This document shows positions 20,077 to 29,906 of a stretch of 42,034 nt of DNA, piece by piece. The stretch covers positions 1 through 42,034 of the forward strand of contig JAFCDM010000016.1 of NCBI GenBank assembly GCA_017609695.1. The letters are read 5' to 3'. This stretch comes from Candidatus Pacearchaeota archaeon. Its GTDB lineage: Archaea > Nanobdellota > Nanobdellia > Pacearchaeales > GW2011-AR1. Under the pieces are notes generated by a model that searched no databases, had not been told where the DNA came from, and was given only the letters and a program-made list of their open reading frames with translations. The stretch's first letter is position 1. Every line of letters begins with the position of its first letter. A program made the translations under genes and the position numbers.

Positions 20077-20115
20077 CGAAAGGGCTGAATCCTTGACCAA
20101 CTAGACGACAGGGGC
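20077..20115 (-). tRNA. tRNA-Glu(UUC)-like 5' half (nt 1-37 only; no 3' half present)
   Basis: Minus strand reads GCCCCTG-TC-GTCT-AGTTGGTCAA-GGAT-T-CAGCC-CTTTCG, then GGGCACTTAACTTAAGG. No GGCTG 3' anticodon-stem strand, T-arm or CAGGGGC acceptor 3' strand follows. Confidence 0.5.
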
Positions 20116-21758: not shown

Positions 21759-21875
21759 CTCAAGCTTTCAATTCTTTATTTATTTTTTTAAGATTGTAAA
21801 TTAAAAACTTTCGGAATTTGATACCTGCGGTTCAAATCTCTATTAGAATAATAACACTATCTAGAAGATAGTGAA

Positions 21876-23736: not shown

Positions 23737-24840
23737 ATGAATAAGAGGGTTAATTTTTTTAAAGGTTACCAGAAAAAATTTATAAATGATTTTAAAAAAC
23801 AATTTAATTTTAGTTGGAATGAATTTGCTAAAAAATTAAAAATAAATTCAAATACCTTAAGTAAATCTTATATGTTTGAACTATGTGATATTCCTTATGA
23901 TATTTTTAAGAAAATTATTAAGATAAGTAATAAAAGTGAAGAAGAGATCCTCAAAAAATACTATGCTAAAATAAAAGAAGAATCCTTAATTATTGGTAGA
24001 AAATGTTTTGGGGAACAAAGAAAAATTTTATATCCGATTAAAATATCTTTTAAAAATAAAAATTTAAAATTAGATACATCACAGATTAATTATAGTAAAT
24101 TTGATATAATCAAGAAAATAAAATTCCCTCGTAAATTAACTCCTGCATTAGCTGAGGAAATAGGAATGCAATTTGGAGATGGGTTCTTATCTGCAAAGAG
24201 ATATGATTATAGATTAAAGGGAAATCCAAAAGATGAAAAAGAATATTATAAAAATTATATAAAACCTTTATTTAAGAAATTATATAATCTAGATTTAAAT
24301 TTAAAAGAATCTTATAAAAGTTTTGGGTTTGAGTTATATTCTCAGGCTTTATGGGAATTTAAAACAAAGGTAATCGGAATAAAGCCTGGAAGAAAAGAAA
24401 AAATATCAATTCCTTCTACTTTAAAAGTTAATGATGAAAAAATTTTATGCTCATTTATAAGGGGTTTATTTGATACTGATGGATCTTTGTGTTTTAAAAC
24501 AAAATATGGATATGAAAGTTATTATCCTGAAATTGGAATTTCTTTAATATCAAAACATTTAATTAAAGAAGTTGGGGAGATATTAAAAATGTTAGGATTT
24601 AATCCTGGAATATATTTTAATAATAAATATGGAAGAATTTCCATATATGGAATAAATGCACTTAAAAAGTATGAAAACCTTATAGGTTGGAGTAGTCAAA
24701 AAAATTTAAAAAGACTAAATGACTGGAAAAAAAGATACCCTCAATTAAACAATATGGCGATTGTAGTTAAGTGGCAGAACACGCGGTTGTGGTCCGTGAG
24801 ACCCGAGTTCGATTCTCGGCTTTCGCTTTTAGGTTATTAA
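23737..24840 (+). CDS. HTH + double-motif LAGLIDADG homing-endonuclease-like protein (paralog of 20101-21030)
   Basis: Motifs LAEEIGMQFGDGFL and IRGLFDTDGSL. The N-terminus FFKGYQKKFI..F.W resembles that of the paralog. The open frame runs through the whole tRNA-His gene, so the true C-terminus is uncertain. Confidence 0.75.
   Translation: MNKRVNFFKGYQKKFINDFKKQFNFSWNEFAKKLKINSNTLSKSYMFELCDIPYDIFKKIIKISNKSEEEILKKYYAKIKEESLIIGRKCFGEQRKILYPIKISFKNKNLKLDTSQINYSKFDIIKKIKFPRKLTPALAEEIGMQFGDGFLSAKRYDYRLKGNPKDEKEYYKNYIKPLFKKLYNLDLNLKESYKSFGFELYSQALWEFKTKVIGIKPGRKEKISIPSTLKVNDEKILCSFIRGLFDTDGSLCFKTKYGYESYYPEIGISLISKHLIKEVGEILKMLGFNPGIYFNNKYGRISIYGINALKKYENLIGWSSQKNLKRLNDWKKRYPQLNNMAIVVKWQNTRLWSVRPEFDSRLSLLGY
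24756..24827 (+). tRNA. tRNA-His (anticodon GUG) with encoded G-1; acceptor stem has two U-U mismatches
   Basis: G-1, acceptor GCGATTG...CTTTCGC, anticodon arm CGCGG-TTGTGGT-CCGTG, T-arm CCGAG-TTCGATT-CTCGG, discriminator T. Pairs 5-68 and 6-67 are U-U. Confidence 0.65.
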
Positions 24841-28073: not shown

Positions 28074-28532
28074 TTAAAGTTCGAATTCTCCTATTCCAGG
28101 ACAAGTGCTTCCGCCCCCAACAACTCCGACTTCTACTGAAGTTTCTGCTGCAGTGGTTAAAGTAATTGTTGCCGTATCTAAAGGTGAAGCCAAAGGATTT
28201 GTTTTAGAAACAGTATACTCTGTTGTTATAGTCTTTAGTTCTCCATCAACAAGAACTTTTAATTCTGAAGATTCAAAAGTTCCACCTTGGGCACTTCTTT
28301 TTGCTATGAATGTTGTGTTTGTTGTAGGACAATCTGAACAACTAACCTCCACATCTACTCCAATACATGCTGTTTGTTCTTCTACTTTTTCACTTCCTGA
28401 TTCAATTGTGTTCCCAACAACCTGCCAAACAATAACAATTGCTGCAAGAACTAATAGGATAATTAAAACAGTAGTGATAACTTGTGCTTGGGCATGCTTT
28501 GCTTTTCTATTAATCATATTTCCTCCTTTCAT
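28074..28532 (-). CDS. Archaeal type IV pilin-like protein (class III signal peptide)
   Basis: MINRKAKHAQAQVITTVLIILLVLAAIVIVWQVV has a basic N-terminus followed by a hydrophobic helix. The remainder is Thr/Ser/Val-rich. Preferred over the antisense ORF 28105-28569. Confidence 0.65.
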   Translation of the reverse strand: MKGGNMINRKAKHAQAQVITTVLIILLVLAAIVIVWQVVGNTIESGSEKVEEQTACIGVDVEVSCSDCPTTNTTFIAKRSAQGGTFESSELKVLVDGELKTITTEYTVSKTNPLASPLDTATITLTTAAETSVEVGVVGGGSTCPGIGEFEL

Positions 28533-28703
28533 CTCTTTTAAAATTGCTTATTTAATTAAAGATTTTTAAGTTTATAAATACTTTTATTTTTTTGATGCTC
28601 TCTATAACTTATAAAACTTTAAGTTATGCAATTTGTAACTTAAGCTTCTAACTCTATCTAAGGATATTTTATAAGATACTAGTTATTATCAAGATTATAT
28701 TAT

Positions 28704-29906
28704 TCATTTATTAAACATATCTAAAACCTCAAAAAAATCTTTTTGGCTTATTACTTTGTCAACTTCTGAAATCCCTTTTTGTTCGACAAATTTCCAAAAT
28801 CCCTCTGGTTTATATCCTCTTTTTTTAAGAGAAGTTGCAGTCGGAAGCCTTGGGTCATCCCAACCAGCATATTTTCCTTGTTCTATTGCTTGCCTCATTT
28901 TTGTTGTTGACATCTCTAAATCTTTAAAATGTAATCTTCCAATAAAACTAATCCAAGGATATTGCTTTTCCTTACCTAATGCTTTGTAGATTAATTTTTG
29001 TCTTTTTGCATTATCCCTGTGGTCTTTTCCACGAATGATATGGGTTATTTTCATTTCAATATCATCTACTGTTACAGATAAATTCATTAAAGGCCAAACC
29101 TTATACTTATTTCCTTGCAATGGGTGTTTTGTTATGTTTATCCTTGCTAATGGAAAATCTCTCATAGCAGGATTTTTATCTTGTAAATTAGATTTAAATC
29201 TTAAAACTGCTTGTCCTTGTCCATACCCTTTTTTATCTAACATTTTCTTCCATCTTTGTAAGTTTTCTTTTTTATTCAAATTTCTGCAAGGGCAAGGTTT
29301 CTTTTTTAAAGATAATTCTTTAAATTTTTCTGGAGAACATGTGCAGATATATGCAGAATTTTTATTAATTAATTTTTCAGCATATTTATAGTATAAAATC
29401 ATTCTTTTAGATTGAATTACAATTATTGCTTTATTACTTGTCAGCCATTTAGATTCTTTTTGAATCATCTTATATGCGGGTTTATAAATATTGTCTGGAT
29501 TTGTATCTTCTATTCTAACATAAAATTTCCCCCCATATTTTTTAACATAAAGAAGATTTAGTCCAATTGTTAAGATGTGCCCTAAAGTTAAAGGGCCTGA
29601 TGCAGAGGGTGCAAATCTTGTGATTACTTTTGCTTTTTTTGTATTTGGTAATTCTGGTAAACCTTGTCTTGTTTTCCTATGTTTAATCAGTTTTTGTAAA
29701 TCATTAAATTGTTTCTTTTGCTCATCTATTGATAATGTATTAATTTGTTTTAAAACCTGATTAATCTCTGGAATTATTTTTTTAATTCCTGTTTTTTTCA
29801 AACCTTCTTTAAATAAACTATTAAGAATATTTCCAACAACAGCTTTCCCATTATGTTCTATTGCATTTTTTAAGGCATATGCTTTTATTGTTTTTTGGTT
29901 TATCAT
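28704..29906 (-). CDS. gltX: Glutamyl-tRNA synthetase catalytic core (archaeal type) lacking the C-terminal anticodon-binding domain
   Basis: RFAPSASGPLTLGHILT (HIGH region), YVRIEDTNP, EMSTTK (KMSKS position), GWDDPRLPT. The ORF stops about 65 aa after the KMSKS position at TGA 28704-28706. The next gene downstream is the pilin. Confidence 0.8.
   Translation of the reverse strand: MINQKTIKAYALKNAIEHNGKAVVGNILNSLFKEGLKKTGIKKIIPEINQVLKQINTLSIDEQKKQFNDLQKLIKHRKTRQGLPELPNTKKAKVITRFAPSASGPLTLGHILTIGLNLLYVKKYGGKFYVRIEDTNPDNIYKPAYKMIQKESKWLTSNKAIIVIQSKRMILYYKYAEKLINKNSAYICTCSPEKFKELSLKKKPCPCRNLNKKENLQRWKKMLDKKGYGQGQAVLRFKSNLQDKNPAMRDFPLARINITKHPLQGNKYKVWPLMNLSVTVDDIEMKITHIIRGKDHRDNAKRQKLIYKALGKEKQYPWISFIGRLHFKDLEMSTTKMRQAIEQGKYAGWDDPRLPTATSLKKRGYKPEGFWKFVEQKGISEVDKVISQKDFFEVLDMFNK

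Follow-up and report, generated by a model that had tools for sequence, protein, structure and literature searches.

The gltX gene described here lies on the minus strand of a 42,034-nt stretch of DNA (the window; positions 1 to 42,034 of contig JAFCDM010000016.1, from the Candidatus Pacearchaeota archaeon assembly GCA_017609695.1) and encodes an archaeal-type glutamyl-tRNA synthetase (GluRS) of only 400 amino acids. We consider it probable that this short form is the sole GluRS of the cell, that is, a naturally minimized archaeal non-discriminating GluRS (ND-GluRS) with the YqeY domain, the Rossmann fold plus connective peptide (CP) domain and the stem-contact (SC) fold kept and both barrels of the anticodon-binding domain permanently lost. 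Within one family of Pacearchaeota-type DPANN archaea, a large share of the members has fixed the barrel loss. With somewhat less assurance, we favor the broader interpretation that at least ~37 genera of this family translate with an anticodon-blind sole GluRS that has no replacement partner, with tRNA identity residing entirely in features of the acceptor stem, D-arm and elbow that the catalytic half and the YqeY domain would recognize, and with GatDE subsequently sorting Glu from Gln. GluRS as well as glutaminyl-tRNA synthetase (GlnRS) are textbook anticodon-reading synthetases, the reading being coupled to catalysis, and the only natural relatives devoid of barrels or of an anticodon-binding domain that we know of are non-aminoacylating paralogs such as GluQRS. 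No published description of an archaeal GluRS without an anticodon-binding domain was found in the full-text literature. The gene and its parts are the following:

28704..29906, minus strand: gltX short form, archaeal-type GluRS of 400 aa (open reading frame [ORF], Pfam, NCBIfam, alignment to structure 3AII, model)
29652..29906, minus strand: residues 1-85, N-terminal YqeY-type helical domain with the motif AYALKNA..H.GKA (3AII residues 8-85, model)
28917..29630, minus strand: residues 93-330, Rossmann catalytic fold with CP insertion (PF00749, mapping to 3AII)
28707..28916, minus strand: residues 331-400, KMSKS-equivalent loop (EMSTT) and SC fold (alignment to 3AII, model)

The frame opens with ATG and closes with TGA at 28704-28706, followed by ATA ATA TAA. 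A preliminary description of this DNA, which did not give the strand, had pointed to an archaeal N-terminal extension, to the motifs TLGH, EMSTTK and GWDDPRLPT and to an end about 65 residues past the KMSKS loop; all of these are found within 28704..29906, with GPLTLGH (TLGH, a variant of HIGH, at residues 107-110), EMSTTK at 331-336, GWDDPRLPT at 348-356 and a C-terminus measured at 64 residues past EMSTTK. The final residues, LDMFNK, correspond to about residue 399 of 3AII, the ND-GluRS of M. thermautotrophicus. The central suggestion of the preliminary description, an archaeal GluRS lacking the anticodon-binding domain, agrees with the profile searches as well. The sole Pfam match in the protein is tRNA-synt_1c (PF00749; residues 93-390, E 6e-64, 216 bits at a cut-off of 23.4), the barrel domains PF03950 and PF20974 giving no match in the Pfam search. 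The archaeal GluRS model NF003169 is matched at positions 6-398 of 567 only, with 428 bits and hence below its 516-bit cut-off, and TIGR00463 at positions 4-390 of 560.

Comparison with the M. thermautotrophicus enzyme defines where the short form ends. There, the YqeY domain comprises residues 1-85, the Rossmann fold 86-170 and 288-331, the CP domain 171-287, the SC fold 354-399, the proximal barrel 400-408 and 500-552, and the distal barrel 409-499, with the proposed anticodon contacts (R403, D462, Q530 and R533) all located within the barrels (PMC2978374). Residues 7-392 of the window protein align to residues 8-390 of the 3AII chain (E 2.6e-91, identity 41%); projected onto the above domain borders, the protein stops at the last residue of the SC fold, so that its end coincides with the boundary between SC fold and proximal barrel. 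As both barrels are missing, all four residues proposed to touch the anticodon are missing, too. An AlphaFold2 model based on a multiple sequence alignment of 72 orthologs reached a mean predicted local distance difference test score (pLDDT) of 94.5 and a predicted template modeling score (pTM) of 0.83, with no segment below a pLDDT of 50 and values of 81-96 in the YqeY helical domain and the C-terminal helices. The YqeY domain is modeled with four helices (residues 4-17, 24-34, 38-55 and 60-73), and the top structural match of the entire model is 3AII (E 1.4e-31, root-mean-square deviation 1.8 Å, 315 columns), in line with the fold of a catalytic half.

At the level of individual residues, the glutamate-binding positions R97, D282 and R292 correspond to R100, D282 and R292 of the M. 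thermautotrophicus enzyme and are invariant in the 72 orthologs, as are D281 and the zinc cysteines C188, C190, C205 and C207 of the CP domain; A9-A15 and G20 of the YqeY domain are invariant or nearly so. The TLGH version of the HIGH motif is found in the window copy and a few relatives, with the first His (H107) kept in at least 90% of the orthologs. The KMSKS loop reads EMSTT in the window GluRS and LSTSG in the biochemically active M. thermautotrophicus enzyme; since the latter is non-canonical as well, the EMSTT loop can be regarded as normal for this subtype.

The end point of the protein is shared by its orthologs. Altogether, 200 stretches encode relatives, and end points were counted on the 78 best species-level loci with an extractable ORF: 77 of these end within a few residues of an FNK/FNR boundary, typically at 398-412 aa, the remaining one being a 472-aa form. 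A common length of the orthologs of the lineage, a prospect already raised in the preliminary description, is thus what we observe. The stop codons of 75 short-form loci, the window included, are TAA (50), TGA (13) and TAG (12), and searching all frames of the 330 nt 3' of the stop with a residual-barrel profile revealed no relic at these loci. Recoding and a recent nonsense mutation are excluded because all stop codons are used and no barrel relic is left, and read-through was rejected also on the grounds that TAA follows two codons past the TGA. Ratios of nonsynonymous to synonymous substitution rates (dN/dS) of 0.04-0.15 for close short-form gene pairs indicate that short gltX is under strong purifying selection. 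As to the truncation initially considered among the possible explanations, it can be upheld as an old, fixed and selected domain loss across dozens of genera; the idea of a decaying copy is contradicted by the dN/dS values.

Classifying 144 scorable genomes of the order by GluRS form assigned a full-length enzyme to 67 (families f3, f5, f6, f8 and f9, part of f4, and 17 genera of f1, the family of the window genome), an intermediate form of ~470-500 aa to 14 (families f1, f2, f4 and f7) and the short form to 62, the last confined to f1, where it extends over ~37 genera and includes 31 genomes with a completeness of at least 90%. In the intermediate form, the distal barrel (M. thermautotrophicus residues 409-499) has been deleted precisely from the interior of the protein, leaving the equivalents of residues 400-408 and the last ~55 residues (500-552), with FWFxHK at the end. 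Full-length relatives conserve the U35 contacts in the sequences NRYFF (R403) and QFER (Q530, R533), which in the intermediate forms are replaced by K/V/G (R403), Y/F (Q530) and K/N/G (R533). Considering that these contacts are already replaced in the intermediates, canonical anticodon reading seems to have decayed ahead of the loss of the last barrel. In a maximum-likelihood tree calculated from the shared 400 residues, the short and most intermediate forms constitute one clade (SH-aLRT 100), whose sister group is made up of the full-length enzymes of the order. Five short forms are nested within an intermediate subclade with support values of 95-99, which means that the final barrel was lost at least twice; the intermediate form of family f2 originated independently inside the full-length clade. 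Domain loss of GluRS within the order looks stepwise. Outside the order, no truncated GluRS was found in ~196 high-quality genomes of the class; genes with low scores were either full-length but divergent or interrupted, be it by the end of a contig or, in a circular contig, by its origin.

A missing domain may, of course, be encoded elsewhere. The preliminary description had envisaged a split gene with a detached C-domain, and had likewise named a stand-alone tRNA-synt_1c_C ORF and a second full-length gltX as possible finds in the remainder of the genome. In the window assembly (828 kb, 119 contigs, 74% complete), there is a single match to PF00749, and PF03950 and PF20974 are without any match at E ≤ 10, so neither a second gltX nor a stand-alone C-domain was detected. 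We also used a C-domain profile derived from the full-length and intermediate enzymes of the same order (A2). Applied to 41 relatives, it recovered every full-length or intermediate form at E 1e-13 to 1e-82 and left all short-form genomes of the genus without a match. The family as a whole was sampled with 121 genomes, each at least 88% complete; here, full-length and intermediate forms scored 1e-13 to 1e-58, and 69 genomes had no C-domain match at E ≤ 0.1, among them 39 with a completeness of at least 90% and a contamination of at most 5%. With a lineage-specific profile that detects all full-length and intermediate forms and nothing in this genome or its short-form relatives, the split-gene explanation was rejected. 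Extra A2 matches were limited to two insignificant ones and a 108-aa barrel-like ORF in genome G057. This free-standing frame (G057:C14:16931-17215) aligns to profile positions 84-175 (E 2e-24), which belong to the proximal barrel; being 3.3 kb away from the full-length GluRS gene of the same genome, it looks like a detached barrel paralog that is not needed there.

The search for other members of the GluRS/GlnRS family (GlxRS) gave a similarly uniform picture. NF003169, which detected bacterial GluRS and GlnRS in 14 of 14 control genomes, was run on 151 genomes of the order with a completeness of at least 80%. It identified a GlxRS gene in 149, one in each, barring a few two-piece genes; accordingly, these genomes have no second GluRS and no GlnRS. 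In G044:C1, G063:C1, G083:C13 and G098:C20, the GluRS match occurs in two pieces or in a frame of 621-832 aa, suggesting that the catalytic domain has acquired inteins or other insertions. The short form is no member of the GluQRS group either, as had been considered at the outset: against 428 bits with the archaeal GluRS model, models of GluQRS (TIGR03838, NF004314) yielded at best 98.4 bits (cut-off 256) and 96.1 bits (cut-off 276.7), and as the sole GlxRS gene the short form has no canonical GluRS beside it.

Of 41 relatives, 40 encode GatE, and this genome is among them (contig C91); genes for tRNA-Gln(UUG) and tRNA-Gln(CUG) are present in the assembly. Together with the lack of a GlnRS, this means that the cell still needs Glu-tRNA-Gln and that the short GluRS is the sole candidate for making it. 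The GatE frame is located at G000 contig C91:2425-3840. In the order, GatE is mostly 470-510 aa long, matches the 622-position profile in most genomes at ~1-265 and 399-620 only and there seems to lack an internal insertion domain. Full-length GatE (~620 aa) was seen in G004 and G032 only, and in several genomes a stop codon separates the two matched parts. With regard to the tRNA substrates, tRNA-Glu and tRNA-Gln of the clade share a GGYCAAG D-loop and a 4-nt variable loop, the former setting them apart from the other tRNAs of the genome. A comparison of tRNA-Glu(UUC) from nine short-form genomes, one intermediate and five full-length genomes revealed no consistent difference.

From these data, we infer aminoacylation by the short form and picture its mode of tRNA recognition as follows. 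The short GluRS would glutamylate tRNA-Glu as well as tRNA-Gln, selecting them without reading the anticodon. The acceptor arm would be bound by the catalytic, CP and SC-fold part as in GlnRS and GluRS complexes, features of the D-arm and elbow common to the two tRNAs may aid recognition, and the YqeY domain, together with a surface of strongly basic charge, may contribute binding energy. Bacterial tRNA-Glu is known to carry an 'augmented D-helix' as identity determinant, and by analogy the GGYCAAG D-loop and the 4-nt variable loop are plausible candidate identity elements. A precedent for the proposed contribution of the N-terminal domain is the GlnRS of D. radiodurans, whose YqeY domain is a cis-acting enhancer of tRNA affinity (PMC1865053). 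The net charge of the catalytic region amounts to +5 in full-length (n = 6), +11 in intermediate (n = 7) and +19 in short forms (n = 73), a rise in basic charge that fits electrostatic compensation for the lost barrels. For the window GluRS, we calculated +31 in the catalytic region and +45 over the 400 residues, the latter being at the top of the range in the 73 short-form orthologs.

Several points weigh against this interpretation. The charge trend is weak, with only six full-length sequences available for comparison, the closest of which (G028) already reaches +17. Both class I signatures deviate in the window protein (TLGH, EMSTT), though HIGH is retained by the majority of orthologs. Activity without barrels is not self-evident, given that GlnRS couples its catalysis to the binding of the anticodon and that glutamate activation by GluRS normally requires tRNA. 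Moreover, the metagenome-assembled genome, 74% complete, shows no intact tRNA-Glu gene. Finally, tRNA-Glu is near-identical across the short, intermediate and full-length lineages, with no visible co-evolution with the loss, which we regard as the weakest point of the idea that tRNA identity has moved. The unchanged tRNA-Glu would, on the other hand, fit an ancestor whose ND-GluRS already recognized tRNA mainly by elements outside the anticodon.

A further objection, namely that sequence searches rule out homologs of the barrels only, leads to what we see as the best surviving alternative, although an unlikely one: a short GluRS that has a housekeeping function and depends on a non-homologous protein or complex for reading the anticodon or for additional tRNA recognition. 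This role could be played by GatDE as part of a transamidosome-like complex, by EF-1alpha or by an unrecognized tRNA-binding protein. Catalysis by GluRS and GlnRS is normally coupled to tRNA binding, the presence of GatE in nearly all relatives is compatible with such an arrangement, and archaeal ND-GluRS and GatDE are known to act on the same tRNA (PMC2943598). However, GatDE recognizes tRNA-Gln and not tRNA-Glu and would therefore be of no help with the main substrate, and YqeY has been reported to work only in cis (PMC1865053). Nor did a candidate partner emerge from the gene neighborhood: the sole conserved neighbor of gltX encodes a small pilin-like membrane protein and was rejected as an implausible GluRS partner.

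We assign a much lower probability to a non-translational paralog with a different task, such as modifying tRNA in the manner of GluQRS or transferring glutamyl groups in some other reaction; Glu-tRNA would then have to reach the symbiont by another route. A catalytic domain without an anticodon-binding domain is indeed the architecture of bacterial GluQRS, HIGH and KMSKS are degenerate in the window copy, and DPANN archaea rely on their hosts for many functions. Yet, with the short form as the only GlxRS gene, as found throughout the order (149 of 151 genomes), there is no other source of Glu-tRNA, and neither import of charged tRNA nor queuosine is known in archaea. In addition, the ribosome, tRNAs, other aminoacyl-tRNA synthetase (aaRS) genes and GatE are retained, the short form is an ortholog of the full-length housekeeping GluRS of sister genera and is nested among these, and its GluQRS scores (at most 98 bits) are remote from cut-offs of at least 250. 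As for an artefact or a dying gene, be it through nonsense mutation, assembly error or one half of a split gene on an unassembled contig, the modest completeness and 119 contigs of the assembly would leave an opening, which is practically closed by the end point common to 77 of 78 species and to 62 of 144 genomes of the order, by three stop codons in use with no downstream relic, by the low dN/dS and by the 39 genomes of at least 90% completeness that have no barrel domain anywhere.

On the 3' side of gltX, the window contains two features:

28533..28703, no strand: AT-rich spacer of 171 nt 3' of the stop codon, without coding remnant of the barrels
28074..28532, minus strand: gene for a pilin-like protein of 152 aa, a syntenic neighbor that provides no substitute tRNA-binding domain

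The preliminary description had rightly held that neither of the two could encode the missing part: the profile finds no barrel remnant in the gap, and the neighbor is a small pilin-like protein, for which a weak match to DUF4330 was the only one obtained. A pilin-like protein of ~150 aa with an N-terminal hydrophobic helix is encoded on the same strand 3' of gltX in 67 of 76 orthologous loci (within L034-L113), at a median gap of 70 nt, and sometimes in two tandem copies. A tRNA-His gene lies 0.6-3 kb downstream, mostly at less than 1 kb, in 22 of 80 loci; in the window, it occupies positions 24756-24828.

The tRNA-Glu half noted earlier at a distance of 8.6 kb from gltX proved to be real, positions 20077-20115 (minus strand) corresponding to positions 1-37 of the tRNA-Glu(UUC) of relatives and diverging right after G37, the canonical intron position. 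A functional link to gltX, however, could not be substantiated: tRNA-Glu adjoins tRNA-Ile(UAU) in relatives, as does the fragment here, so that its distance from gltX reflects ordinary synteny. The fragment belongs to a separate tRNA disruption and not to the GluRS finding. Neither the 3' half nor an intact tRNA-Glu was found in the 828-kb assembly by ARAGORN, the Rfam tRNA model or fuzzy matching, which together detected 23-30 tRNA genes. A pattern at 21808-21838 (plus strand; CTTTCGG...GGTTCAAATC), 37 nt from tRNA-Ile(UAU), resembles an anticodon loop plus T-arm; it does not make up a foldable tRNA and was rejected, being either a chance similarity or what is left of the disrupted tRNA-Glu/tRNA-Ile region.

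If a sole GluRS without barrels indeed supports translation in these archaea, the 'operational' half of the tRNA would by itself suffice to maintain Glu and Gln identity, and genome reduction in DPANN archaea would reach into the core decoding machinery. The lineage would then constitute a natural experiment on the dispensability of anticodon recognition in a class I synthetase, since it preserves intermediates from the full-length enzyme over forms that have lost the distal barrel and carry degenerate U35 contacts to forms in which both barrels are lost. It would also supply a ready minimal GlxRS scaffold, along with natural intermediates, for studies on domain communication and the engineering of orthogonal pairs. 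On the practical side, short gltX genes may be annotated as partial genes or pseudogenes, given that they score below curated GluRS cut-offs, and this would distort completeness and metabolic calls for the clade. New in the present analysis are the genome-wide demonstration of a single copy and the absence of a detached domain from dozens of high-quality genomes, as well as the intermediate with degenerate U35 contacts, the order-wide tally and the negative result outside the order.

Among known systems, the short GluRS recalls the split aaRS genes of Nanoarchaeum equitans (e.g., split AlaRS) in being a DPANN aaRS ORF that ends at a domain boundary. In N. equitans, however, the other half is encoded elsewhere, whereas all of the genomes searched here lack a second half. 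With GluQRS (YadB), it shares the status of a natural GluRS-family protein cut down to the catalytic domain, without an anticodon-binding domain. GluQRS, though, derives from bacterial-type GluRS, is found beside a normal GluRS and, rather than aminoacylating, modifies the queuosine of tRNA-Asp, while the short form is archaeal-type, includes the YqeY domain and SC fold and is the only GlxRS of its genome. The closest counterpart is archaeal ND-GluRS as represented by 3AII, with which it has in common the YqeY domain, the Rossmann/CP core, the zinc site, the Arg/Asp/Arg network, a non-canonical KMSKS loop and the SC fold, and by analogy presumably also the role of providing Glu-tRNA-Glu and, for GatDE, Glu-tRNA-Gln. 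It departs from 3AII in being without the proximal and distal barrels (M. thermautotrophicus residues 400-552), and from the members of NF003169 in scoring below the curated cut-off and in its TLGH version of HIGH. Judged by its sequence, we thus would be dealing with a GlxRS that works like an ND-GluRS yet fails the defining C-terminal feature of its family. D. radiodurans GlnRS (2HZ7; PMC1865053), which was among the top fold matches of our model, is another GlxRS-family enzyme with a YqeY domain; there, this domain is C-terminal and added to intact barrels (PMC1865053), whereas the short GluRS, which has lost its barrels, carries it at the N-terminus like all archaeal GluRS.

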